From NCBI GenBank assembly GCA_028287785.1, contig JAQBOZ010000017.1, positions 72,225 through 136,224 of the forward strand: a DNA stretch of 64,000 nt. Direction: 5' to 3'. The notes under the pieces are model-generated. The model was not told the DNA's origin and searched no databases. It worked only from the letters and a program-made list of their open reading frames with translations. The DNA is from Chlorobiota bacterium (GTDB lineage Bacteria; Bacteroidota; Ignavibacteria; OLB7). Below are positions 3,389-63,415 of the stretch, one piece after another. Position 1 is the stretch's first letter. Every line of letters starts with the position of its first letter. Made by a program: the position numbers and the translations under genes.

Positions 3389-5968
<2,580 letters not shown>

Positions 5969-45776: not shown

Positions 45777-45976
45777 AGCGGTTTACGGGTTGGTCCTGAA
45801 CGATATTCCGTTCGCCCGCGCCGGCCTGTCGGGGGGGGGATGCCGGGCAATCGAGAGGAACCTTCAATCTACCAAATTCGCCCGAACAGGCCGCGCGTTC
45901 CGGTACATCCTGCAACGTCCCTTCCGCTTGTGCGGAGCCATCGCTTCGCTATCTTTGCTCTCTGCATCCGATCGTC

Positions 45977-46175
45977 AGGTGTCCTGGGAGAAGCCAGGAA
46001 GAATAGGGAATGCCGTGCGCCCGCAAGGGCTAATCGGCAGCGGTTGCGCCGCTGTAACGGGCGACGACCTCTCCAACTGAGCGCTCAACAACCGAGTGCC
46101 GGGCCACTGTGAGCTGCTGCTCACGGGAAGGCCGGAGAGTTCGAATGACCCCGAAGCCAGAAGACCTGCCTGATG
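45977..46175 (+). promoter_or_regulatory. Cobalamin (B12) riboswitch aptamer; the expression platform probably extends to about 46355
   Basis: Seen directly: AATAGGGAATGCCGTGCG...GCAGCGG...GGGCCACTGTGAGCTGCTGCTCACGGGAAGGCCGG...CCCGAAGCCAGAAGACCTGCC. Block for block this matches the conserved core and the B12 box of the E. coli btuB leader, as recalled from the RF00174 consensus. Confidence 0.8.
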
Positions 46176-46355
46176 ATCCTCATCCACGATCCCATTGGGA
46201 TCAGCTTTCCCGCCAAGGAAAGTGATGAGGAGATGGTCTACACTCCGTTTCGGGGAGAGGCGCCGCGCCTCCCGTTCCCGCCACTGTAGCATCATTTCCC
46301 GTCGTCCATCGTTACCGCTCCCGACCTGGCATCGGAGGGCATCGGCGTTCGTGAA

Positions 46356-48650
46356 ATGAATCTTCGCTTTCTGCTTCCACTCGTCCTTTTCCTGGGAGGG
46401 CTTTCCATTGCCCAGGGACAATTCCATCACATCCAGACGGACAAATCTCCGTCGTTTATTTTCAATGATCCGGTCAAGGGGCACATTCATGTGATCACCC
46501 TGGGGGTGGACGCCAACTTCGACGGCGTTTTCCAGCCCGGCTCCGACGTGGCTCCGCGCTGGTTTGTGCTGGATGCCGCTACCGAGGAGGAGGTGGGCTC
46601 CACCACATTCACGGGGTTCTTCAACTCCTTTCCGCTTCGCGCCGGCGTTGATCTGAAGGGACGCCGGCTCTACGTGCCGCAGCTCGGCCGCGTCCGCGCG
46701 TTCGATATCGACGATCTGGGGATCGTCCAGGATTCCGTCTCCACGACGAATGCCTCCACCGTCATGTTCGATTCCCTGACGGGATATATCACCCTCTCCT
46801 TCCGCCCCGGATTTACCGTTCCGGGATGGACCGAGACGATCGACCCGCGCACCGGGAAGCGTATCTCGATGATGAACACCGGCGTCAATCCCGGCATGGC
46901 CGTGCCGAAGGGGGCTGAAACGTATACCATCACCGAGGGGGGGCCGGGCATTCCCTCGACGGTCGCCTACAGCCGCTACCGGGCAAGCCTCTACGCCGGG
47001 GCGCTCGGCGGCAACGGGAATCATATGGTCGTGCGCGGAACCGCCGCCTATCTCGTGATGAGCGCCACCAACCAGATTCGGATCATCGACACCAGAACGG
47101 GGAGGGATACCCTCTCTTCGCCGATCGCTGTTGGCACGGCCGGATTCGGGAGCCCCCGCATGCTCGACGTTCAGGGGGACAGCGTGCTGGTGGTGGCGAC
47201 ATATGCCAGGGATATCCGACGATTCAGAATCGCGACCGGGGCGATGATCGACAAGATCGCGCTCCCCGGCGCCGCGGAGGCCGTTGCCGTGCGCGACTCG
47301 CTGGCATACGTGGCGATTCCGCTCGATTCCGCCCGCCATACCGATTCCCTGGTGGTGGTGGTGAACCTGAACAGCGGCCGGCCGGTCGATACGCTCGCCG
47401 TGGGGCCGAACCCGCTCGGGCTCTTTATCGATCGCCTCGGAAATCTTCAGGTGGTTGTGGCCGATACCATCCCCGGCGCCGGCCGGCTGGTGAGCTACGA
47501 GCGCGGAACGCTTCTCAAGAAGGGGGAGCGCCCGCTCCACGGCGCGATCAGCAACCCGCTGCATATGGCCTACGATAATTCCGACGACTCGCTCTTTATC
47601 GTCCTTTCCGATACTCTCTTCGCGTTCGCGGTTTCCGGCTCCGGCTCGCCGTTGCGCGCCGCCTATACCGATACGCTCGCCAGGGGGGCTCTCTTCGGCG
47701 TCAGCGGCGCGGGCGATTATCTCCTGATCACCGAACGCCCGAAGAACCCAGGGGAGGATTCATCCTATGTCCACATCGTGAGCCGGAAGAGCGGAGGGGA
47801 GGTGGCGAAATTCATGGCGGGTTACCTGGTGATGATGGCGCTGCCGGTGGTTTCCGGTCGCGGCGACCATGCGATGAGCTTCTACGCTCTCAACCAGGGA
47901 GGGTTTGCGGCGACTGCATCCACCCTGACCTCCTTCGAGTTCCAGCCCGATATCCTCGGCCCCGATACGCTGGGAAGCGGCGCGAACCATATAACGTTGG
48001 AGGGACTGAGCGCCGATAACGACAAGGCCCTGGTGACGATGAACGGGAACCACAGCGTTGTCCGGCTGGACCTCGATACCTGGACGGTGATGCGCCGCAC
48101 GTCGACGAAGACGACCGGGTTCGATGGCCCGCGCGAGACGATGGCGCTCTCCCCGTCGACGTTGCTCGTGAGCACCTACGCCGGCGATGTGCGCCGGATC
48201 ACGGTGAGCGATAACTCCGTCCGGGTGATCCCGGTCTATGGAAAGGCGGAGGGGATGGCGCGCGCCGGAAGCAAAGTCTACGTGGCCCTGCCGTTCGCTC
48301 CCGATGCCACCTACACGCCCTCCGCAAGCGTCGCGGTGATCGATACCGCCGCGATTGCATCGGTACGTCGTGATGATGCGATCGCATCCGCCACGACGCT
48401 GGAGCAGAACTATCCGAACCCCGTATCGTCCGGCACCGAGATCCGTTTCTCGGTCGCCGTGGCCGGCAGAGTGACCCTTGCCCTCTACAGGCCGGATGGC
48501 GCCCTTGCCGGCACGATCGTCGACAGGGAGATGGAGCCGGGAAGCTATACCGCGCGGATGGACGTGGCCGGGCTTGCCAGCGGATCATACATCTACACGC
48601 TTCGCTCCGGAGGAACGCTTCTGAGCAGAGTGATGAAGGTCGTGCGATAA
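46356..48650 (+). CDS. Secreted YVTN/YncE-like beta-propeller repeat protein with T9SS C-terminal sorting domain
   Basis: Signal peptide, repeated beta-propeller blades and a C-terminal T9SS CTD (NYPNPVSSGTEIRF...VTLALYRPDG...SGSYIYTL). First gene downstream of the B12 riboswitch. Confidence 0.6.
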   Translation: MNLRFLLPLVLFLGGLSIAQGQFHHIQTDKSPSFIFNDPVKGHIHVITLGVDANFDGVFQPGSDVAPRWFVLDAATEEEVGSTTFTGFFNSFPLRAGVDLKGRRLYVPQLGRVRAFDIDDLGIVQDSVSTTNASTVMFDSLTGYITLSFRPGFTVPGWTETIDPRTGKRISMMNTGVNPGMAVPKGAETYTITEGGPGIPSTVAYSRYRASLYAGALGGNGNHMVVRGTAAYLVMSATNQIRIIDTRTGRDTLSSPIAVGTAGFGSPRMLDVQGDSVLVVATYARDIRRFRIATGAMIDKIALPGAAEAVAVRDSLAYVAIPLDSARHTDSLVVVVNLNSGRPVDTLAVGPNPLGLFIDRLGNLQVVVADTIPGAGRLVSYERGTLLKKGERPLHGAISNPLHMAYDNSDDSLFIVLSDTLFAFAVSGSGSPLRAAYTDTLARGALFGVSGAGDYLLITERPKNPGEDSSYVHIVSRKSGGEVAKFMAGYLVMMALPVVSGRGDHAMSFYALNQGGFAATASTLTSFEFQPDILGPDTLGSGANHITLEGLSADNDKALVTMNGNHSVVRLDLDTWTVMRRTSTKTTGFDGPRETMALSPSTLLVSTYAGDVRRITVSDNSVRVIPVYGKAEGMARAGSKVYVALPFAPDATYTPSASVAVIDTAAIASVRRDDAIASATTLEQNYPNPVSSGTEIRFSVAVAGRVTLALYRPDGALAGTIVDREMEPGSYTARMDVAGLASGSYIYTLRSGGTLLSRVMKVVR

Positions 48651-49633
48651 TGCGATCATCATCATACCGCCGGCCGGGAGCCATCCCCGGCCGGTTGCGC
48701 CGGCTTGCCGCCGCCGCGCTGCTCTTCCTGGCAATCGCGTCGCCGGGCCACGCCCAGTGGGAGAACACCGGCGCCGATGCCGTGGAATCCTTCACCCCCG
48801 GAACCGGGGCGGGGCTTGGCTCCGATCACTATCCCGAGAATGTCCTCGGCCTTCCCGACTCGGCCGCCCGAGCCGATATCCCCACGATCGATCCCGTTCA
48901 GATCCTGTCGCTCGGGCTCGGCGGCGAAATCGTCCTCCGGTTCGATCGCGCGCCGATCACCGATATCCCCGGCCCCGACTTCACGGTGTTCGAAAACGCG
49001 TTCACCTATATCATCGGTGGAAAGGAGAAGACCTATGCCGAGCCGGGCGAGGTTGCGGTAAGCCGGGACGGCGTTCACTTTCTGACATTTCCGTACGACT
49101 CCATCACCCTCCGCGGGTGCGCCGGCGTTGGCCCCACCAACGGCGGGAACGATCCCGGCGATCCGCTTGTCTCCGGCGGCAACAGCTTCGATCTTCACGA
49201 TCTCGGGGTCGACTCGGTTCGATGGGTTCGCATCCGCGATGTGACCTCGATCGTCAAGGATCATCCCTCGCATCCCTTCTGGGACCCCACGCTGACCGGG
49301 TTCGATCTTGATGCCGTTGTGCGCGCCACGAAATCCCATCCGGGCGGCATCGCCACGGCTCCCACGGGCGCGCACGCTTCGGCGGTGCTTTCGCCCAACC
49401 CGGTTGCCGGACAGGGGGTGCTCCGGGTTGATGCTCCCATATCGGGAGACCTCACGGCGCGGGTGACCGATCTTCTCGGAAGAGAGGTGATGACAATCTC
49501 CGGCGGCGCTATCGACCGAGGCCGGAACGTGCTTCCGTTCGATGCCTCCCGGCTGGCCGATGGCGTCTACTTCATAGCCGTGGCGATCGATGGACATCCC
49601 GTGACGATGCTCAGGGCCCAGGTATGTAGATGA
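48650..49633 (+). CDS. Secreted hypothetical protein with T9SS C-terminal sorting domain
   Basis: Signal peptide and C-terminal CTD (LSPNPVAGQGVLRV...DGVYFIAVAIDGHPVTMLRAQV). No recognisable catalytic motif. Its start overlaps the upstream stop (TAATG) and its stop overlaps the TBDR start (ATGA). Confidence 0.5.
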   Translation: MRSSSYRRPGAIPGRLRRLAAAALLFLAIASPGHAQWENTGADAVESFTPGTGAGLGSDHYPENVLGLPDSAARADIPTIDPVQILSLGLGGEIVLRFDRAPITDIPGPDFTVFENAFTYIIGGKEKTYAEPGEVAVSRDGVHFLTFPYDSITLRGCAGVGPTNGGNDPGDPLVSGGNSFDLHDLGVDSVRWVRIRDVTSIVKDHPSHPFWDPTLTGFDLDAVVRATKSHPGGIATAPTGAHASAVLSPNPVAGQGVLRVDAPISGDLTARVTDLLGREVMTISGGAIDRGRNVLPFDASRLADGVYFIAVAIDGHPVTMLRAQVCR

Positions 49634-51618
49634 GAGCCCTTGCCCTCCATATCTCCCTGCTCGTGCTTTCCGGGGCATGCGCGGCGGCCCAGCCCGGAAC
49701 CCCGGAGCCGGGGAAGGGAAAGGATTCCGCGAGAGTCTACCACGCTCCTGAAGTGCGCGTGGAGGCACGGTCGATACTGACGCGGGTATCGCGGGGAACG
49801 CAGCCGCGCGCGGTTGTGACCAGGGCGCAGATCGAGGCGGCAAACGGCTTCGACCTTTCCGATGCCGTTGCGTACGCGCCGGGGGTGTTCGTGAAGCAGT
49901 ATGGCGGCGTCGGCGGGCTGCGGACGATATCGCTGCGCGGCACATCGGCGCAGCAGACGGTGATCCTGATCGATGGGATCCGGTACCGGAGCAGCGCGGA
50001 CGGGGGGTTCGATTTCAGCAATCTTCCCTCGGCATCGGTCGATCAGGTGGAGGTGCTCCGCGGCGGCAACGCGGCGCTCTACGGCGCCAATGCACTCGGC
50101 GGCGTGATCAACGTGGTGACGCGAGCGCCATCGGCCGGCGGGACGGCGCTTACGGCGCGAGGGGGATATGGCTCGTATGGTCAGCGGGAGATGGGCATCG
50201 GGGGGAACGGCGCGGCGGGAAACCATGTGTGGGATGCCGGTTTCAACGCCACCGCCACAAACGGCAACTATCCGTTCAGCTTCAATGAGTTCGGTGCCAC
50301 CTCGACCTTCGAGCGGGATAATGCGGACTTCTCCAACTATTTCGGCCGTGGAGGCTGGGCATATCATCGCGATGATGGCCTGCGGCTTTCGGCCTCGATG
50401 CAGGGCTATCGATCCGAACGTGGCGTCCCCGGCGCGGTGGTGCAGGGAAACCGCGAACAGCTCCATGCGCGCCTGAATGAGAGCGATCTGTTTGCCGCCG
50501 CCGCCGCTTCCTGGCCCACGGAGGAGTGGCAGTTCTCCATCTCGGCGAGCGGTCGCCTGAACGCCCTGGGCTACCGCGATCCCGACGCGCGCGTTGCCGG
50601 CCCGTCCGGCATCGACGACGAGTATCGGGAGAGGGAGGGGAACTTCATGGGGAGGGTGAGGCGGGCAATCGGTGACCATGGCGTTGCGGAGGGGACGGCG
50701 GAGGTTTCTCAGACGCATCTTCGCGGCGACAATCTGGACCCGGCGCTGGGCTCCGCCGCATCGCGGACTTCGGTGAGCGGCGCGATCGCAACAAACTGGC
50801 TTTATGACGATGGTCTGTTCGGCTGCGAAACCGCCCTCGAAGCCGGCCTTCGTCTCGATCTCTTCGATGATCTTCCCACCGCGCTGAGCCCATCGGCCGG
50901 GTTGATCTGGCGCGCCGGCTCCACCCCGCTCCGGCTGCGGGCGCATGGTGGGCTGAACTACAGGGCGCCGAGCTTCGCCGAGCAATACTATCTCAACTAC
51001 GGCAACGCGAACCTGCGGCCCGAGCGTTCCATGAGCGGCGACCTTGGGGCTACCTACGAGGTGGGGGAGACGTTCGCCCTGGAATCGAGCTTCTTCATGA
51101 TCGCCACGCGCGATCAGATCGTCTCGGTGCCGCGCAGCCCCGTAAGCTGGAGCGCGGCAAACGTCGAGCGGGTTCTTTCGCGCGGCCTGGAGCTGGGGGG
51201 ATCGGGGACGCTGTTCGATGGGATGCTTGGGCTTCGGGCCTCCTACACGCTGACACGGGCCGAGGACAGGAGCGGGGGAACGGTGGATGGAAAGCTGCTG
51301 GTGTATGCGCCCGAGGAGTTGACCAACGGCATCGTGGATCTGCGGCTGGGTCGTTACGGCATCGGAGCGGCGTGGCAGTACGTCGGTCATCGCTTCACGC
51401 TCCCCGCGAACGATCCCGGTTCCGCGCTGCCACGTTACGGCCTGCTTGCCGCAAATATCTCCGCGCGCTGGATCATTGGCGGCGTGGGGGTGAAGGCGCG
51501 CCTGGAATGCTCGAACATGTTCGATACGGAATATCAGGTGGTGAGGAATTATCCCATGCCGGGGAGAACGTTTCTCGGAAGGGTCGAGATCGATTTTCAT
51601 GATGGGCCGCAACCATGA
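49630..51618 (+). CDS. TonB-dependent receptor, BtuB-like size class
   Basis: Plug domain (DQVEVLRGGNAALYGANALGGVINVVTR) and a 22-strand barrel-like C-terminal region with terminal ...RVEIDF. In a riboswitch-led operon. Confidence 0.8.
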   Translation: MRALALHISLLVLSGACAAAQPGTPEPGKGKDSARVYHAPEVRVEARSILTRVSRGTQPRAVVTRAQIEAANGFDLSDAVAYAPGVFVKQYGGVGGLRTISLRGTSAQQTVILIDGIRYRSSADGGFDFSNLPSASVDQVEVLRGGNAALYGANALGGVINVVTRAPSAGGTALTARGGYGSYGQREMGIGGNGAAGNHVWDAGFNATATNGNYPFSFNEFGATSTFERDNADFSNYFGRGGWAYHRDDGLRLSASMQGYRSERGVPGAVVQGNREQLHARLNESDLFAAAAASWPTEEWQFSISASGRLNALGYRDPDARVAGPSGIDDEYREREGNFMGRVRRAIGDHGVAEGTAEVSQTHLRGDNLDPALGSAASRTSVSGAIATNWLYDDGLFGCETALEAGLRLDLFDDLPTALSPSAGLIWRAGSTPLRLRAHGGLNYRAPSFAEQYYLNYGNANLRPERSMSGDLGATYEVGETFALESSFFMIATRDQIVSVPRSPVSWSAANVERVLSRGLELGGSGTLFDGMLGLRASYTLTRAEDRSGGTVDGKLLVYAPEELTNGIVDLRLGRYGIGAAWQYVGHRFTLPANDPGSALPRYGLLAANISARWIIGGVGVKARLECSNMFDTEYQVVRNYPMPGRTFLGRVEIDFHDGPQP

Positions 51619-52745
51619 GCGCGATTGCGCGGGATATCCATATGCCGATAAGAAAATGCGTAGCCACGCGGCTTTGCGGGGCGATCGTGCCATCCGCTCT
51701 GCTTGCGTTGGTGCTTCTGCTGGCCGGCTGCATATCCGATCCCACACTCACATCTCCTCCGGTGGTGAGCGCCGGAGCGCATGGGGTGCTGGTGGTGAAC
51801 GAGGGGGTATGGAAGCAGGATAATTCCACGCTCACCTTCTACAACCCCGATAGCGGCGGGCCGGTTCAGGACTATTTCGCGGCGCGCAATCCCGGCCTGC
51901 GTCTGGGGGATCTCGGCAACAGCATCGTTACCTGGAAGGGACGGGGATATATCGCCGTCTCCACGTCGCGGGCGGTGGAGGTGATCGATCTGGCGACCGG
52001 GCATTCCCTGGGGCGCGTCCGTCTGAACGCCCCGAACGAGCCGCGCATGATCGCGATCATCGACAGCGCGACCGCGTTTGTCACAACCTTTGCCGATTCG
52101 GTGATCCGTTTCAACCCGATGACGCTGGCAACGACGGGATCGTTCGCCGTGGGGCCGGCCCCGGAGGGGATCGCGTATGCCGCCGGCCATCTTTTTGTGG
52201 CGAACTCCGGGCTCGGCAATCTGCGGCGCACCGAACCAGGGGCGGGGACGATCTCGGTGCTCGATCCGGCAAGCGGCGCGGAGCTGGCGATGCTTCCCAC
52301 CGGCACCAACCCGCTGAGCGTTCATTATCTGCCATCGCGGGGGCGCGTCTACGTGCTGGCCCGTCCCATTCTCCCCGATACGCTCGGCGCCGTGGTGGAA
52401 TACGATCCGGCCTCGTTGCGCGAGGTTCGTCGCTGGCCGGTGGCCGGTGGCTACGACATGGCTGTCGATGACGGGCGCGGGATCATCTATGTGATGCATG
52501 GGGAGGGCGTGGCGCGGATCGATCCATCGGTTGCGGGGGATAATGTGAGGGGGCTGGTGCAACTGGGCGAGGCGGGGGCGATGTTCTATTCGATCGGGGT
52601 GGAGCCGGTAAGCGGCGATATCTATCTGGGGACCACGAACGGGTACTCAAGCGTGCCGGCGGCGGTGATGATATACGACCGCGCTGGCGCGTTCAAATCC
52701 CGTTTTCCCTGCGGCATCTATCCCGGCGATTTCGCGTTCTATTGA
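51615..52745 (+). CDS. YncE-like beta-propeller surface lipoprotein (BtuG-like candidate)
   Basis: Lipobox LLLAGC in the signal peptide, beta-propeller repeats, immediately downstream of and overlapping the TonB-dependent receptor. Confidence 0.55.
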   Translation: MSAIARDIHMPIRKCVATRLCGAIVPSALLALVLLLAGCISDPTLTSPPVVSAGAHGVLVVNEGVWKQDNSTLTFYNPDSGGPVQDYFAARNPGLRLGDLGNSIVTWKGRGYIAVSTSRAVEVIDLATGHSLGRVRLNAPNEPRMIAIIDSATAFVTTFADSVIRFNPMTLATTGSFAVGPAPEGIAYAAGHLFVANSGLGNLRRTEPGAGTISVLDPASGAELAMLPTGTNPLSVHYLPSRGRVYVLARPILPDTLGAVVEYDPASLREVRRWPVAGGYDMAVDDGRGIIYVMHGEGVARIDPSVAGDNVRGLVQLGEAGAMFYSIGVEPVSGDIYLGTTNGYSSVPAAVMIYDRAGAFKSRFPCGIYPGDFAFY

Positions 52746-52861
52746 GCGCCTGTCGTCGAAACGAAAACGGGCGTTCCGATGATTCGGGACGCCCGTTGCT
52801 GTTTACTATCGATGGGGTGCGTTAGCGTTGTTCCATTGCCGGTTGGCGGAAGGGGTCTCCG

Positions 52862-58997: not shown

Positions 58998-59564
58998 ATG
59001 GGACGTTGTTCAGGGATCACACATCGCGGAGGATGGCTGGCGGCGCTGCTGCTGCTGCTCTGCGGAAGCGTTCTGACCGCGCAGGTGCGGACGCTGAATC
59101 TTCGCGAGATGGTCGGCTCGGCCGGGACCATCTTCATCGGCTCCGTCGCCGGGGTTTCCTCGGGATCGGATGAACATGGCGATATCGTCACCTACACCAC
59201 ATTCCGGGTGGAACAGCCCATCTACGGCGGCGCCGCCGGAACCGTCACCGTCAAACAGCTTGGCGGGGCCTCCGGCGGGCTCTCCACAAGGCTCGAACAT
59301 ATGCGCTACTTCCGCACCGGCGAGCGTGTGCTGGTGGCCTTCTATCCCATCAGCTCCCTTGGCTTCACCAGCCCCATCGGGCTTTATCAGGCCGTCTGGA
59401 ACGTCACGTCGGACGGGCAGGTGCTGGGGGTGGGGGATACATCGCTTGGGGGACTGGACGCGCTGCTCAGGCGATATCACCTGGACCGCAACGGCGGCAC
59501 GGTGGCGGCTTCCACGTTCGTTTCGATGATCGATGATCTTCTCAGGGAGGCGGGAAAATTATGA
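58998..59564 (+). CDS. Secreted hypothetical protein (signal peptide, Gly-rich)
   Basis: 188-aa ORF with an N-terminal signal peptide. Its stop overlaps the start of the giant downstream gene (ATGA). Confidence 0.45.
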   Translation: MGRCSGITHRGGWLAALLLLLCGSVLTAQVRTLNLREMVGSAGTIFIGSVAGVSSGSDEHGDIVTYTTFRVEQPIYGGAAGTVTVKQLGGASGGLSTRLEHMRYFRTGERVLVAFYPISSLGFTSPIGLYQAVWNVTSDGQVLGVGDTSLGGLDALLRRYHLDRNGGTVAASTFVSMIDDLLREAGKL

Positions 59565-62500
59565 GAACGATCACAATGATTCTTGCCGCGGCGATTATCG
59601 CCCTGACGGCGCTTCCGACGCATGCGGGGGGGCCGCTGACCGCCAACGGGACCACGGCGCGGAGATATCCCGCCGGCTCCATTCCCATCTCCTTCAAGAC
59701 CGATCAGGGGGCGCTCGGCTCCTTCTCCAACGGCACGGCAACCGGGATCGCGGTCTACGCGTTCCAGCAGTGGGATAACGTGGTCACTGCCGCTCTCTCC
59801 TTCAACAACGCGGGGCAGCTCCCGCGTGATGTCACCACCGCCGCCGATGCGTTTATCTCCGGCGCCGGACAGTTCAGCGATGGCGTCAACCCGGTGGTGT
59901 TCGACAACGACGGCTCCATCACCGACGCCAAGCTGGGGGTGGGGGCCAGGAACTCCGTGCTCGGCTTCGCCAGCTCCGCCTACGCCGGGAACAACTATGT
60001 GGAGGGATACGCCATCATCAACGGCTTCCTGAGCGGCGCCGGGGGCGTTGCGGAACAGGATGAGTACAAGGCGACGATCACCCATGAGATCGGGCATTTT
60101 CTCGGGCTGGGACACTCGCAGGTTTCCATGCACGCCGATTACGCCACGATGTATCCAGTCATCGAGAAGACCGCGCAGAAAACCCTTTCACCCGACGATC
60201 AGGCTGCCATCTCCATTCTCTATCCGGCCGCGGGGTATACCGCCACGGTCGGCGGCATCACCGGAACGGTGCGGCGGCTTCCCAACACCTCCCTGAGCGG
60301 CGTGAATGTGATCGCCGAGGACTCCGCGACGGGCGCGGCCTACAGCACCGTGGTCGATTACTTCTCCGGCGGGAAATCGGGGTTTGACAACGCTCCTGCG
60401 GCAACCGGCACCTACACATTCACGGGGCTGCCGCCGGGGAGATACTTCGTCAGGATCGAGCCGGTCACGGCAACCTTTACCGGCGGTTCGTCGGTCGCCA
60501 GCTACGATACGCCGGCCAACATGAATATCGATCGCGAATGGTACAACGGCACGGCGGAGAACGGGGATATGCTCCTCGACAACGTCAACGAGAAGACGGG
60601 CGTGGTGGTGGCCGCCGGCGCCACGACATCCAACATCAGCTTCCTCGAAAACGAGTCCATCACGATCAGCTCCCTGGTCTATCACGACGGCACTCCCTAT
60701 TATCTCTTCGATCTGCCGCAGGCGGGGATCAGCCGCTATGCCGTGCGGTTTACGGCTCCCGGCACCGGATCGCTGGTGGGGGTGAAGTTCAAGCTGGGCG
60801 CCGGCTCGGTGCTGCCGCTCAACGGCACGCTTACCGTCACGGTCCACGCCAACGCGCCGGGGAGCGTGGCGGGGGTGCCGGGGACGGCGCTCGGATCGGT
60901 GACGATCCCGTACAGCGATATCGCCGCCGATCAGAACGTGGAGGTCTACCTGCGCGGCATAGGGTTGCCGATAAACTTCCCGGCCGGAACCAACTTCCAC
61001 GTCTCGCTCTCCACGAACGGCGTCGGCACGCTTGAGCTTTTTACCGATAACGGGAGCACGACGCAGAACCGGACATCGTACTACAACGGCACCGTCTGGC
61101 GGAATTTCCCGGAGGGGGGCTATCAGGCGGGATATAATCTCGTGATGTCCGCGGTCTACTCCTCCTCCATCGCCGGCACGCCGCAGCCCGCTCTCTCGGC
61201 CACGCCCACGTCGCTCCAGTTCGGACGGGTCAGGCCGGGGAACAGCATCACCAGGACAGTTACCGTGACCAACACCGGCACCGGCCTGCTGACGGTGAAC
61301 ACGACGCCGATCCTCGGGCGTGACAGCCTCGATTATTCGGTCACGGCGGGGAAGGGGCCGTTCACGGTGGACCCGGGATTGTCGCACGATATCAGCGTGC
61401 GGTTCACCCCGCGGGACGCGGGGGGAGTGGAGGACGGGACGAAGTCGGCGATGATGGCGATCGTCAGCAACGCGGCGACATCCCCCGATAATGTCCCGCT
61501 CAGCGGTCGCGCGGTCGCGCCGCTCGTCATGAAGGTGACATCGGCCGTGGACTTCGGTTCGCGACGGGTTGGGGGCACCTATATCATCGATACGGTCCTG
61601 TTCAGGAACGCCGGCAACGATACGCTTCACGTCACCGGCGTAACCGCCCTCGGCCCGGATGACGGCAGCGGCCTCCGGCTGCTGAACGGCAGTGGTGCCA
61701 CCATTGTCCCACCGGATTCCAGCTTCCGTGCCCGCATCCAGTTTACGCCGACGGAACGGCGCATATATACGCTCAACCTCCGCATCGTCCACGACGACCC
61801 GAAGAACACCCCGACCGATATCACGATCGCCGGCCGCGGCGTGGCGGCCATCATCTCCACGGCGGGGACCTTCTCGGTGGGCAGGGCCCGCGTGGGAACC
61901 ACCATCGACGCGCCGCCGCTCTTTGTGCGGAACAGCGGGGATATTCCGGTGAGGATCACATCGCTCACGATAAGCGGCGCCAACGCGACGGAGTTCATTG
62001 TTCTTTCACCGGTGCCGCCGGTGACGCTGGCTCCCGGCGATTCTCTTCCGATCCGCTTCCGGTTCCATCCGATGGCAATCGGAATTCGCGTGGCGACGCT
62101 CCAGGTGGGGGCGGATTCGCTGGCGCCGATCAGTATCCAGCTCAATGGCGAGGGGATACAGGGGGCGCTCTCCTTCCGTTCGGCGGCCGTCGATTTCGGC
62201 GATGTTCCTCTGGCATCCAACGGCGAGCGTGATATCGCCGTGGTGAACTCCGGCACCGATACGGCAACCATCAGCTCGGCCGATGTCACGGGGTCCGGGT
62301 TCTCGCTCGTGACGCAGTCGCTCGCGGGACGGAAGCTCCTTCCGGGGGATAGCGTCATCGTCCGTGTCCGATTTGCGCCGACGGTTGCGGGCACTTCATC
62401 GGGGAGCCTCCGCATCGCCAGCAACGGCTCCGATCCGCTGATCGTCGCTTCGCTCTCCGGCCGGGGAACGGCGGCGGGGCTTACGCTCAACCGCACCCGC

Positions 62501-63415
62501 GTCGATTTCGGAGCGGTGGCCACCGGCATATCGCGCACCGATTCGTTTACCGTGCGGAACACCGGCAACGCTCCTCTGACCGGCGTGACGTTGACGTTGA
62601 CTGGGCCTGACGCCGCGGCGTTCGAGATCATCTCGCCGACCCCCCTTGCCGTTTCCCCCGGAGGGGCGCAGACCGTCCTGGTTCGGCTGAAGCCGCAGGC
62701 ATCGGAGCGCGCGCTGTCGGCGGGCGTTGTGGTGCAGCCCGCCGGTGGATCATCGGCCGAGGTAACGCTGTCGGCAACGATTGGTAGCGGCATTGCCGCC
62801 ACGGTTGCCGCCGTCGATTTCGGAAGTAGGCTCCCCGGCGGGGCTTACGATACCACGGTGGTCATCAGGAACATCACATCCGGCAGCATCACCATCTCCT
62901 CCATCGCCGCCAGTGCCGGCAAGGATGGCGCTTCCGGCGATTATTTCCGCTCGATGAGCCCCGCGCCGGTGATGATCCCGCCGAACGATTCGATCGCGAT
63001 TGTCGTGCGGTTTTCGCCGGCCGCCGGAACGGGTCGGTACACCGGATCGCTGGCGATCGCCGTCAACGGCTCCGCGCCGCTGGTGATCTCACTCGTCGGC
63101 CGGGCTTCGGCAGTCGGCGGCGTGGCCGATGGGATCGTGGCCGGGGAGGGGATGCCTGCACTACTGCCGGTTGCGCCGAACCCCGCGGCCGGGGTCATAG
63201 AGATCGGGTATCGCGCCGGTGGAGGGATGATGCCGGTGGAGATCGTCATTACCGATGCAATCGGCAGGGAGGTTGCGGTTGTCTATCAGGGAACCGCAAC
63301 GCGCACTGACGAGCGCGTTCGATTCAACACCTCACCGCTGCCGTCCGGGAGATATTACGTGCTTCTCCGATCGGCGCGCGGCAGCGTTACGCAACCGCTG
63401 GTGATCGTGAAATAG
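59561..63415 (+). CDS. T9SS-secreted matrixin-like (M10 metzincin) metalloprotease with multiple Ig-like ASH / choice-of-anchor-D type repeats
   Basis: Signal peptide. Catalytic domain with HEIGHFLGLGHS (HExxHxxGxxH), a Met-turn ATMYP, and matrixin-like AFQQWDNV and DDQAAISILYP. At least seven ~100-aa repeats begin with V/LDFG...V.N.G...L.I. C-terminal T9SS CTD. Confidence 0.75.
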   Translation: MRTITMILAAAIIALTALPTHAGGPLTANGTTARRYPAGSIPISFKTDQGALGSFSNGTATGIAVYAFQQWDNVVTAALSFNNAGQLPRDVTTAADAFISGAGQFSDGVNPVVFDNDGSITDAKLGVGARNSVLGFASSAYAGNNYVEGYAIINGFLSGAGGVAEQDEYKATITHEIGHFLGLGHSQVSMHADYATMYPVIEKTAQKTLSPDDQAAISILYPAAGYTATVGGITGTVRRLPNTSLSGVNVIAEDSATGAAYSTVVDYFSGGKSGFDNAPAATGTYTFTGLPPGRYFVRIEPVTATFTGGSSVASYDTPANMNIDREWYNGTAENGDMLLDNVNEKTGVVVAAGATTSNISFLENESITISSLVYHDGTPYYLFDLPQAGISRYAVRFTAPGTGSLVGVKFKLGAGSVLPLNGTLTVTVHANAPGSVAGVPGTALGSVTIPYSDIAADQNVEVYLRGIGLPINFPAGTNFHVSLSTNGVGTLELFTDNGSTTQNRTSYYNGTVWRNFPEGGYQAGYNLVMSAVYSSSIAGTPQPALSATPTSLQFGRVRPGNSITRTVTVTNTGTGLLTVNTTPILGRDSLDYSVTAGKGPFTVDPGLSHDISVRFTPRDAGGVEDGTKSAMMAIVSNAATSPDNVPLSGRAVAPLVMKVTSAVDFGSRRVGGTYIIDTVLFRNAGNDTLHVTGVTALGPDDGSGLRLLNGSGATIVPPDSSFRARIQFTPTERRIYTLNLRIVHDDPKNTPTDITIAGRGVAAIISTAGTFSVGRARVGTTIDAPPLFVRNSGDIPVRITSLTISGANATEFIVLSPVPPVTLAPGDSLPIRFRFHPMAIGIRVATLQVGADSLAPISIQLNGEGIQGALSFRSAAVDFGDVPLASNGERDIAVVNSGTDTATISSADVTGSGFSLVTQSLAGRKLLPGDSVIVRVRFAPTVAGTSSGSLRIASNGSDPLIVASLSGRGTAAGLTLNRTRVDFGAVATGISRTDSFTVRNTGNAPLTGVTLTLTGPDAAAFEIISPTPLAVSPGGAQTVLVRLKPQASERALSAGVVVQPAGGSSAEVTLSATIGSGIAATVAAVDFGSRLPGGAYDTTVVIRNITSGSITISSIAASAGKDGASGDYFRSMSPAPVMIPPNDSIAIVVRFSPAAGTGRYTGSLAIAVNGSAPLVISLVGRASAVGGVADGIVAGEGMPALLPVAPNPAAGVIEIGYRAGGGMMPVEIVITDAIGREVAVVYQGTATRTDERVRFNTSPLPSGRYYVLLRSARGSVTQPLVIVK

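Follow-up and report, generated by a model that had tools for sequence, protein, structure and literature searches.

A four-gene operon in the window (the 64,000-nt stretch of Chlorobiota DNA analysed here) probably encodes a system for scavenging corrinoids (vitamin B12) and importing them through the outer membrane, related to BtuB-BtuG-BtuH of Bacteroides and predicted to be repressed by intracellular B12 through a riboswitch. The core of the sequence-only reading, a riboswitch-run outer-membrane corrinoid capture set with a receptor and BtuG-like propellers, agrees with every test that we ran, although one component has a different predicted architecture from that first proposed and another can be assigned to a family.

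Operon layout and riboswitch

A cobalamin riboswitch aptamer, RF00174, lies at positions 45960-46187, on the plus strand like all parts of the operon below. It was matched by cmscan over the complete model (1-189) at 102.4 bits (E 1.7e-24; gathering score, 31.5), so the riboswitch call, on which the sequence-only reading depended, holds. The 168-nt leader, or expression platform, between the aptamer and the ATG of gene 1 (46188-46355) contains GC-rich hairpins, with a folding z-score of only -2.0, and no U-tailed terminator.

Four genes follow: gene 1 (46356-48650, 764 aa), for a nested double BtuG-like beta-propeller with a T9SS C-terminal sorting domain (CTD); gene 2 (48650-49633, 327 aa), for a BtuH-type domain protein with a T9SS CTD; gene 3 (49630-51618, 662 aa), for a BtuB-type TonB-dependent corrinoid transporter; and gene 4 (51615-52745, 376 aa), for a seven-bladed propeller lipoprotein of the BtuG family (DUF5074). 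As proposed earlier, the genes overlap, with TAATG, ATGA and ATGA read off the sequence at junctions 1/2, 2/3 and 3/4, respectively. A terminator-like hairpin closes the operon at 52766-52797, 21 nt past the gene-4 stop; it has a 14-bp stem with nine GC pairs and a 4-nt loop, and is followed by GCTGTTTACT. A Pfam scan of approximately 40 ORFs of the window detected no btuFCD-like gene, as had been noted from the sequence, and the inner-membrane step, by BtuFCD or an equivalent, would be encoded elsewhere.

BtuB and BtuG homologues

Gene 3 had been taken for a TonB-dependent receptor, in agreement with its Plug domain (7.8e-26) and with its best NCBIfam family, TIGR01779 (TonB-B12; 1e-54, 186 bits against an equivalog cut-off of 600). 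Its top PDB match is BtuB1 of B. thetaiotaomicron (8blw_A), over the full length and with an E of 3.7e-39, and the next matches, starting with E. coli BtuB, are all BtuB proteins. Gene 3 is shown by homology to encode the TonB-dependent transporter BtuB.

The BtuG-like lipoprotein recognized in gene 4 was likewise borne out. Its lipobox, LLAG-C39, contains a Cys that is invariant in 29 of 29 relatives, and phmmer with the single sequence retrieved BtuG1 from the PDB full length, by its G-domain (E 6.6e-21). The family profile matches BtuG1 (3e-58), BtuG3 (2e-43) and BtuG2 (7e-42), and more weakly BtuK1 (4e-11); BtuK1 and BtuK2 (PDB 9S6C and 4R5O) also serve a B12 locus as accessory propellers, and one of the two binds cobalamin, but they are PKD-domain lipoproteins. 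PF16819 occurs in nearly all of 57 gene-4 relatives, and the BtuG2 contacts E55, F58, Y316 and Y335 correspond to E63, W66, Y325 and Y344 of gene 4, kept in 22-27 of 29 relatives. Gene 4 shares with the surface lipoprotein BtuG2 (BT1954; Wexler et al. 2018, PMC6143338) the DUF5074 seven-bladed propeller, the NEGxF/W start motif, the two Tyr contacts and the linkage to btuB and a corrinoid riboswitch. Homology shows it to be a BtuG-type propeller lipoprotein, the partner of the BtuB encoded by gene 3. Within a panel of gut genomes, BtuG was stated to be exclusive to Bacteroidetes (Wexler 2018, PMC6143338); here, unlike in that report, the family was found outside the gut panel, in Kapaibacteria, Ignavibacteria, KSB1 and others, also in CTD-tagged, circularly permuted and duplicated forms.

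T9SS-tagged proteins of genes 1 and 2

The 764-aa product of gene 1 had been read as a single YVTN-type seven-bladed propeller; instead, its AF2 model (pLDDT 86.7, pTM 0.79; all-beta, with some 54 strands plus the CTD) and hhalign comparisons point to two BtuG-like propellers. Behind an SPI signal peptide (aa 1-21/22, cleaved before Gln), aa 22-185 (46419-46910) align to residues 223-371 of the gene-4 family (E 2.6e-13) as the C-terminal half, approximately blades 5-7, of propeller B. A complete propeller A follows at aa 186-513 (46911-47894), aligned to gene-4 residues 53-376, with E values against the gene-4/DUF5074 family of 3.4e-25 (local) and 2.3e-34 (global). The N-terminal half of propeller B, approximately blades 1-4, occupies aa 514-678 (47895-48389), and aligns both to gene-4 residues 52-226 (E 2.7e-15) and to the N-terminal half of propeller A (E 2e-32). 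When de-permuted by joining aa 503-678 to aa 22-187, propeller B aligned globally to the BtuG family with an E of 2.9e-34. By these alignments, gene 1 is a whole BtuG-like propeller inserted in a second, circularly permuted one, followed by the CTD.

BtuG structures were the only PDB matches of gene 1 by phmmer, and neither this search nor the hhalign and profile comparisons linked the propeller proteins to lactonases or other enzymes, a relationship that would have spoken against the sequence-only reading; their specific relatives are the solved BtuG proteins of Bacteroides. The gene-1 family falls into 16 clusters at 90% identity, and 175 of its representatives reach E<=1e-30. The Glu of the propeller A NEGxF motif (E194) is invariant in 16 of 16 relatives. 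Gene 1 of the window departs from most relatives at two motif positions, with Pro197 for Phe and Gln514 for Glu, and one or both propeller sites may be weakened because of these substitutions.

Gene 2 had been described as an unknown T9SS cargo. The cargo part stands, since it carries a type-A CTD, but the protein can now be placed in a family. No Pfam model covers the domain at aa 40-230 (48767-49339), behind an SPI signal cleaved before Gln36, but at E<=10 the family profile matched nothing in the PDB except the H-domain of BtuG1 (3.7e-4) and BtuH2 (0.49), and homology thus shows it to be a BtuH-type B12-binding domain. N399, F401 and E406 of BtuH2 align to N116, F118 and E131, all three invariant across the gene-2 family. 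Gene 2 thus resembles BtuH2 (BT1956; PDB 7BIZ, Putnam et al. 2022, PMC8941943) in its metal-site Asn and Glu and corrin-stacking Phe (roles taken from PMC13616437), and in its location in a btuB operon. BtuH2, in contrast, is a lipoprotein that carries three PKD domains ahead of a C-terminal binding domain, whereas in gene 2 the binding domain comes first, PKD domains are missing and a T9SS sorting domain ends the protein; the identity is only approximately 20%. With gene 2 as a BtuH homologue, all three accessory proteins therefore belong to known B12-binding families, and we infer that the products of genes 1, 2 and 4 bind B12.

Genes 1 and 2 both combine a Sec/SPI signal peptide with a predicted T9SS type-A CTD where a lipobox would be, in line with the earlier proposal that two components are T9SS-sorted and not lipidated. 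The CTDs lie at aa 685-764 of gene 1 (48408-48647; PF18962 at 19.7 bits, TIGR04183 at 19.3 bits) and aa 244-327 of gene 2 (49379-49630), both matches being under the curated thresholds; PF18962 is matched by 14 of 16 gene-1 relatives, at best with 1e-7. Both proteins would be displayed on the surface or released via T9SS. Elsewhere in the window, at 59561-63415, another CTD protein scores above threshold.

Recurrence, mechanism and relation to known systems

The module riboswitch-gene1-gene2-BtuB(-BtuG) recurs in Kapaibacteria and relatives with differing flanking genes. RF00174 is directly upstream of the gene-1 homologue at loci L002-L005, L007 and L008, and at approximately 20 more found by nhmmer; it precedes other orders of these parts in KSB1, Calditrichia-like, Gemmatimonadota and other MAGs, and is absent from a set of related loci ordered TBDT-gene2-gene4. 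The gene-2 domain is encoded in 223 species genomes, and fusions of a BtuG-like propeller, a BtuH-like domain and a CTD exist, with the domain order of Bacteroides BtuG1, propeller then H-domain (PMC10404256).

In the mechanism that we propose, scarcity of B12 would lead to expression of the operon. The products of genes 1 and 2 would lose their CTDs and be attached to the cell surface, or released to the medium, capturing corrinoids at high affinity, gene 1 at up to two propeller sites and gene 2 at one BtuH site. The captured corrinoid would be handed to a BtuG-BtuB core, in which gene 4 would sit on gene 3 like the 'pedal-bin' lid known from BtuBG, for TonB-driven import. A possible but less likely sub-variant concerns where the proteins end up: genes 1 and 2 would not be anchored but act as T9SS-released soluble 'corrinophores' that bind B12 at a distance and dock back on BtuG-BtuB, like hemophores or siderophores. 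Type-A CTD cargo may stay at the surface or enter the medium (PMC5837995), BtuJ-loaded vesicles already constitute a diffusible capture route in Bacteroides (PMC12751083), and genes 1 and 2 show no further element that would anchor them; yet their sequences do not tell release from A-LPS-type anchoring, and Bacteroides BtuH and BtuG work in cis on the surface. It is unlikely that gene 1, as a T9SS-attached double propeller directly on BtuB, is the lid, instead of or alternating with gene 4, which would then be an auxiliary or redundant BtuG. Propeller A retains the Glu that is invariant in the binding motif of BtuG, and L002, L003 and L019, loci with the gene order of the window, retain riboswitch-gene1-gene2-BtuB and lack the DUF5074 lipoprotein gene downstream of BtuB. 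That gene may, however, simply sit elsewhere in those genomes; a separate lipoprotein BtuG occurs in 52 of 80 loci, and gene 4 is a closer BtuG homologue than gene 1 and bears the lipid anchor by which the lid is positioned in the BtuBG complexes of known structure.

Like gene 1, PorZ of Porphyromonas gingivalis (PDB 5M11) has two beta-propellers and then a T9SS CTD, and it was among the top Foldseek matches of gene 1, as would fit propeller and jelly-roll proteins that are generic T9SS surface proteins (adhesin, S-layer-like or PorZ-like), sharing the operon but binding no corrinoids. We find this highly unlikely. PorZ belongs to the T9SS attachment complex and not to riboswitch-regulated nutrient capture, and shows no detectable sequence similarity to gene 1 and a TM-score of only 0.16; unlike its propellers, those of gene 1 are BtuG homologues, one nested in the other, and each matches the DUF5074 profile at E ~1e-34. 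The gene-2 profile matches BtuH-domain structures alone, with the metal-site residues kept, and several candidate phyla preserve the association with RF00174 and BtuB. Import by gene 3 of another tetrapyrrole or metal complex (e.g. heme or a cobalt chelate) in place of complete corrinoids appears more improbable still. RF00174 can control cobalt transport genes as well, and the sub-threshold equivalog score of gene 3 is accompanied by scores from heme and siderophore receptor families in NCBIfam; against this stand its full-length top match to BtuB1, with only BtuB proteins next in the PDB, and three accessory proteins from families whose characterised members bind cobamides.

The complex BtuB1-BtuG1 (BtuGH, BT1490) of B. 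thetaiotaomicron locus 1 (PDB 8BLW; Abellon-Ruiz et al. 2023, PMC10404256) is the top PDB match for three of the four operon proteins, and its locus likewise is a riboswitch-run operon with a TonB-dependent BtuB, a seven-bladed BtuG lipoprotein and a second, BtuH-type domain. There, the H-domain is part of the lipoprotein, whereas in the window it forms a protein of its own, equipped with an SPI signal and a T9SS CTD; additionally, the operon of the window gains the 764-aa double propeller with its CTD, lacks btuFCD, btuJ, btuK and btuL, and belongs to a Kapaibacteria/'Chlorobi' MAG and not to a gut Bacteroides. Our full-text literature search found no paper tying BtuG or BtuH to T9SS, in agreement with the earlier view that the arrangement had not been described. 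Our verdict, drawn from sequence comparisons, is that the operon represents BtuBGH-type corrinoid capture using predicted T9SS sorting in place of lipidation, a variant of a known system. CTD-tagged BtuH- and BtuG-like proteins adjoin BtuB in many non-Bacteroidia FCB lineages, and the T9SS-tagged arrangement is a widespread pattern in these lineages, not peculiar to the genome of the window.

Riboswitch, operon structure and the BtuB-BtuG pair

The operon is preceded by a cobalamin riboswitch (RF00174; 45960-46187, + strand), which scored 102.4 bits in cmscan against a gathering threshold of 31.5, covers the complete aptamer model (positions 1-189) and was the sole Rfam family above threshold in the whole 64-kb window, upholding the riboswitch call of the sequence-only reading. 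A leader of 168 nt (46188-46355) runs from the aptamer end to the start of gene 1 (46356-48650; ORF of 764 aa), which is followed on the same strand by gene 2 (48650-49633; 327 aa), gene 3 (49630-51618; 662 aa) and gene 4 (51615-52745; 376 aa), with a GC-rich, 14-bp hairpin (52766-52797) after the gene 4 stop. The junctions read from the sequence are, in order, TAATG, ATGA and ATGA, and the coordinates and gene overlaps first reported agree with our ORF calls. With the riboswitch at 45960 and the hairpin after the last stop, the operon unit therefore spans approximately 45960 to 52800.

The leader (46188-46355) contains hairpins, but neither a simple scan for terminators nor the folding of 46150-46375 (z = -2.0) revealed a convincing terminator, anti-RBS element or sequestering helix. 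The aptamer 3' end, GATCCTCATC (46172-46187), is conserved in 5/5 aligned riboswitches and is complementary to GATGAGGAG (46224-46238), around 45 nt downstream. Such pairing could form the switching helix of an expression platform and is put forward as a candidate.

A TonB-dependent B12 transporter combines a Plug domain with a 22-strand barrel; gene 3 has the Plug domain (Pfam, E 7.8e-26), and its top NCBIfam family is TonB-B12 (TIGR01779, E 1e-54), with scores far below the equivalog cut-offs (186 vs 599.7 bits for TIGR01779 and 121 vs 836 bits for NF007926). Among all PDB sequences, the closest to gene 3 was B. thetaiotaomicron BtuB1 (8blw_A; full length, residues 30-651, E 3.7e-39), followed by E. 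coli BtuB and then B. theta BtuB2 and BtuB3, with siderophore and heme receptors all ranking lower. We thus assign gene 3, from these comparisons, as BtuB, a distant member of its top-scoring family.

The single sequence of gene 4 matched BtuG structures in the PDB at full length (phmmer; 8ptf, 8ptd and 8blw_B, E ~7e-21, residues 51-371). The sequence-only reading had proposed HMM searches against BtuG, BtuH and YncE as a check. A profile of 29 gene 4 relatives matched BtuG1 (3e-58), BtuG3 (2e-43) and BtuG2 (7e-42), and matched a generic YVTN propeller (3e-24), YncE (1e-11) and BtuK1 (4e-11) much less strongly; a gene 2 profile matched the H-domain of BtuG1 (3.7e-4). The Pfam score of gene 4 for PF16819/DUF5074 is 26.9 bits, for a cut-off of 27.2, and nearly all of its 57 relatives carry this domain. 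The gene 4 start overlaps the btuB stop, and its lipobox (LLAG-C39) has a cysteine kept in 29/29 relatives, in agreement with the earlier prediction of a propeller lipoprotein beside BtuB. Using the B12 contacts of BtuG2 from a 2026 review, transferred via the gene 4 profile alignment, we found four retained in gene 4 (E55 as E63, F58 as W66, Y316 as Y325 and Y335 as Y344), each conserved in 22-27 of 29 relatives, and three altered (Q93 to N102, N107 to S116 and S131 to E142); no counterpart could be assigned to S195, Y196, Q219 or Y239. By sequence, we identify gene 4 as BtuG.

BtuG- and BtuH-like proteins with predicted T9SS sorting domains

The AlphaFold model of gene 1, built with 16 relatives (pLDDT 86.7, pTM 0.79), is all-beta with around 54 strands before the predicted T9SS type-A C-terminal sorting domain (CTD; PF18962 Por_Secre_tail/TIGR04183), sufficient for two seven-bladed propellers. 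Fold searches alone cannot separate BtuG from other seven-bladed propellers; by sequence, gene 1 matched only BtuG structures in the PDB, and 5/16 of its relatives matched PF16819 directly. In profile-profile comparisons (hhalign) with the gene 4 family, gene 1 residues 186-513 aligned locally with the whole propeller (53-376, E 3.4e-25), residues 22-180 with its C-terminal half (223-371, E 2.6e-13) and residues 503-672 with its N-terminal half (52-226, E 2.7e-15). These alignments place blades ~5-7 of propeller B right after the signal peptide, then propeller A in its entirety, then blades ~1-4 of propeller B, with the CTD last. In global alignments, propeller A alone (E 2.3e-34) and the de-permuted propeller B (503-678 joined to 22-187, against 52-376; E 2.9e-34) both matched the family, so that the single seven-bladed YVTN propeller proposed from the sequence alone gives way to two BtuG-like propellers.

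Related genomes and an exhaustive representative search independently support this architecture. Approximately 45 of the best 150 gene 1 matches are of the double type (740-830 aa), and around 85 are proteins of 410-480 aa that cover profile positions ~8-220 and ~520-771 with nothing between, that is, propeller B alone plus CTD, a single propeller in circularly permuted form. The most fitting description of gene 1 is therefore this permuted propeller, interrupted at its junction by the insertion of a second BtuG-like propeller, and the homology and the stand-alone permuted proteins suggest that propeller B closes physically from its N- and C-terminal half-propellers. The 410-480-aa proteins constitute a large uncharacterised family (P0224-P0343; also L039 6563-7984, L042 6426-7853 and L065 6578-7963 in loci of other genomes), whose genes in L042 and L065 come immediately after a riboswitch-like element and are followed by BtuB.

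At the family level, the BtuG start motif NEGxF opens both propellers of gene 1. Position 194 is Glu in 16/16 relatives and in the window protein, and position 544 is Asn throughout (16/16 and the window protein); position 197 is Phe in 14/16 and Pro in the window protein, position 514 is Glu in 9/16 and Gln in the window protein, and position 517 is Phe in 11/16 and in the window protein.

Several other identities were considered for these proteins. A canonical BtuG is a single seven-bladed propeller with an N-terminal lipid anchor; gene 1 has two propellers, an SPI signal without a lipobox Cys and a predicted CTD, and is therefore a BtuG relative rather than a canonical member. A PorZ-like T9SS component, also considered, was rejected because it shows no sequence similarity and has a different operon context. 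The sequence-only reading had named clear homology of the propellers to unrelated enzymes such as lactonases as a refutation, but searches of Pfam, NCBIfam and PDB sequences returned no such match. The deposited NCBI name of gene 1 (P0001), 'Endonuclease/exonuclease/phosphatase', appears to be an annotation error, since neither Pfam nor NCBIfam detected any such domain.

Single-sequence searches with gene 2 were uninformative, and no Pfam model covers its BtuH-like domain. Its AlphaFold model (alignment of 40 relatives, pLDDT 90.3) comprises an N-terminal domain (~aa 40-230), which folds like the globular domain of BtuH, and a beta-sandwich at the C-terminus (aa 244-325); the two top structural matches have a high rmsd because both domains were aligned jointly. 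Sequence evidence agrees independently with the model. A broadened profile of the N-terminal domain retrieved from the PDB, at E<=10, only the H-domain of BtuG1 (3.7e-4) and BtuH2 (0.49), with a narrower profile being less sensitive than the full or broadened ones (8blw_B, E 0.068). In the BtuH2 alignment (E 0.49), the motif GN(399)AF(401)DGSSE(406)P falls on gene 2 residues N116, F118 and E131, none of which varies within the family; the alignment does not extend to BtuH2 residues Q333, F334, Y475, H476, Y510, D522, W577, S582 and E584. In BtuH2, N399 and E406 are ligands of the Na/Ca site where the phosphate of the nucleotide loop is held, and F401 stacks on the corrin (PMC13616437). Model and profiles together identify gene 2, an unknown T9SS cargo in the sequence-only reading, as a BtuH-type protein with a predicted CTD.

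Two observations on gene 2 and its relatives extend beyond the operon. Residues 88-147 of gene 2 weakly match NCBIfam NF033170 ('LIC_13355 family lipoprotein' of Leptospira, E 7e-5), a family that may contain a BtuH-like domain and so extend BtuH-like proteins to spirochaetes. Also, the relatives P0113, P0117 and P0132 carry a DUF5522 (PF17653) segment N-terminal to the signal-peptide region, which is either a genuine additional domain or a gene-call fusion with an upstream ORF.

Genes 1 and 2 both have SPI-type predicted signal peptides, with an N-terminal Gln after cleavage and no lipobox. The CTDs of both window proteins score under the thresholds of the curated models (PF18962/TIGR04183), and PF18962 is found at E<=0.01 in 14/16 gene 1 and 21/40 gene 2 relatives; the modelled gene 2 CTD superposes on solved CTDs. 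Gene 2 is not a surface lipoprotein by its signals (SPI cleavage at …GHA/QWEN, no lipobox, CTD at the C-terminus), and among its relatives only the distant P0134 and P0136 have a lipobox and no CTD. Elsewhere in the window, a 1284-aa protein (59561-63415, + strand) combines a matrixin-like peptidase segment with many Ig-like repeats of the ASH/HYDIN/DUF1573 type. Its Por_Secre_tail CTD exceeds the Pfam threshold (29.9 vs 27 bits), and it is likely another T9SS cargo. The occurrence of the T9SS beyond Bacteroidetes, in Chlorobi and Ignavibacteriae, has only been suggested (PMC5837995).

Distribution and arrangements of related loci

The proteins of genes 1-4 co-occur on two contigs, one from Logan and one of 201 kb from an NCBI MAG labelled 'Chlorobi bacterium'; their close relatives bear the label Candidatus Kapaibacterium or Kapabacteria. 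For gene 1, clustering at 90% left only 16 relatives (36-70% identity). All contigs fetched for four relatives contain RF00174 (82-114 bits) directly upstream of the gene 1 homologue, which is followed by a gene 2 homologue and a Plug/TonB receptor, with variable flanking genes: a DUF5074 gene is next in L005 and L007, a methyltransferase gene intervenes in L004, and there is none in L002 and L003.

A motif scan of one genome per GTDB species found gene 2 relatives in 223 genomes. The best 80 of these are Kapaibacteria, Chlorobiota, Ignavibacteria, Melioribacteraceae, KSB1, Calditrichaceae, Zixibacteria, Gemmatimonadota and unclassified Bacteroidota/Cytophagia MAGs. In hmmsearch of six-frame ORFs from these 80 loci, the gene 2-like ORF has a CTD in 63, a BtuB-like receptor lies within 4.5 kb on the same strand in 66, and 52 have a separate DUF5074 gene; some BtuG-like propeller with a CTD occurs in 42/80 and the full double propeller in 18/80. 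Near-identical Kapaibacteria-type loci in MAGs labelled Alphaproteobacteria, Patescibacteria or Bradyrhizobiaceae (L010, L014, L020, L045 and L072) probably reflect bin contamination or mislabelling, not true occurrence there.

We distinguished five arrangements. The window order (gene 1-gene 2-BtuB-BtuG) is shared by the window, L001-L021, L023, L024, L027 and L030, and the KSB1 order (gene 2-BtuB-BtuG-gene 1) by L022 and L025. BtuB comes first (BtuB-gene 2-BtuG) in L034, L036, L038, L043-L049 and others, and a permuted single propeller precedes BtuB-gene 2-BtuG in L039, L042 and L065. Finally, L068, L073, L082, L087 and others contain, adjoining BtuB, a single fusion ORF (~640-690 aa) of SPI signal, BtuG-like propeller, BtuH-like domain and CTD, sharing exactly the domain order of Bacteroides BtuG1.

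The sequence-only reading had suggested comparative genomics of RF00174-linked operons. RF00174 lies upstream of every window-order locus having upstream DNA, and also of both KSB1-order loci, five fusion loci, L062, L063, L074 and L081. Within the first 300-3200 bases of each locus, it was absent from 8/8 BtuB-first loci tested (L034, L036, L038, L044, L049, L054, L056 and L064), where the BtuB-like receptor begins ~70-140 nt past a tRNA gene of opposite orientation, joined in L036, L049 and L056 by a 5S rRNA gene. These loci appear to be a paralogue of the B12-capture system that lacks the riboswitch and is possibly constitutive. In L017, a 3.2-Mb Chlorobiota contig, a second riboswitch-like match (3555-3755, + strand; nhmmer E 8e-32), ~3.6 kb upstream of the riboswitch of the operon, suggests another B12-regulated gene next door.

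A possible T9SS-dependent route for B12 capture

The sequence analysis establishes the regulatory element, how the operon is built, which family each domain belongs to and that the linkage of the parts is conserved, and a working mechanism can be outlined from these. Low B12 would turn the operon on, and gene 4 would form a lid over gene 3 like that of the solved BtuBG 'pedal bin'. Genes 1 and 2 would be exported by Sec and then by the T9SS, to capture corrinoids outside the cell and pass them to BtuG/BtuB; as T9SS cargo, they could be either anchored or released.

All binding modules of the operon are, by sequence, from known families. What appears to be new is the predicted sorting route, with a CTD replacing the lipobox on the BtuH-like protein and the additional BtuG-like one; the architecture of gene 1, with its propellers permuted and nested, is also new, as is the phylogenetic range of BtuG-like proteins, compared with the description of BtuG as exclusive to Bacteroidetes in a gut-genome panel (Wexler 2018, PMC6143338). 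A full-text literature search covering part of the journals found no paper linking BtuG, BtuH or B12 capture with the T9SS, in line with the earlier remark that this is not a described arrangement.

To our knowledge, surface B12 capture (BtuG, BtuH, BtuJ and BtuK) has been studied almost entirely in gut Bacteroides, where all components are lipoproteins. In environmental FCB lineages, where ~200 species genomes carry parts of the system, these binding modules are on a different predicted route of export and anchoring, the T9SS. Current annotation is uninformative or wrong, as in 'cell surface protein' for gene 2 and the enzyme name of gene 1. The architecture of gene 1 is relevant to protein evolution, since the simpler permuted single propeller with CTD exists in many genomes and the double form has a full propeller inserted. 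If confirmed, these systems would tie the T9SS to micronutrient competition, make secreted B12 carriers in soils, sediments and bioreactors a possibility, and offer natural 'domain-swap' controls for the relay to BtuB (lipobox vs CTD; separate vs fused G and H domains).

We advance only tentatively, as a rather doubtful possibility, the wider proposal that non-Bacteroidia FCB bacteria (Kapaibacteria, Ignavibacteria, KSB1, Calditrichia-like and other groups) take up B12 by a T9SS-dependent system, in which CTD-tagged BtuG- and BtuH-like binders, at least some of them diffusible 'corrinophores', and a nested double propeller with two B12 sites would feed a lipoprotein-capped BtuB. If true, B12 scavenging would be a physiological function of the T9SS, and gene 1 would be the first B12 binder made by a propeller inserted into a circularly permuted copy of itself.
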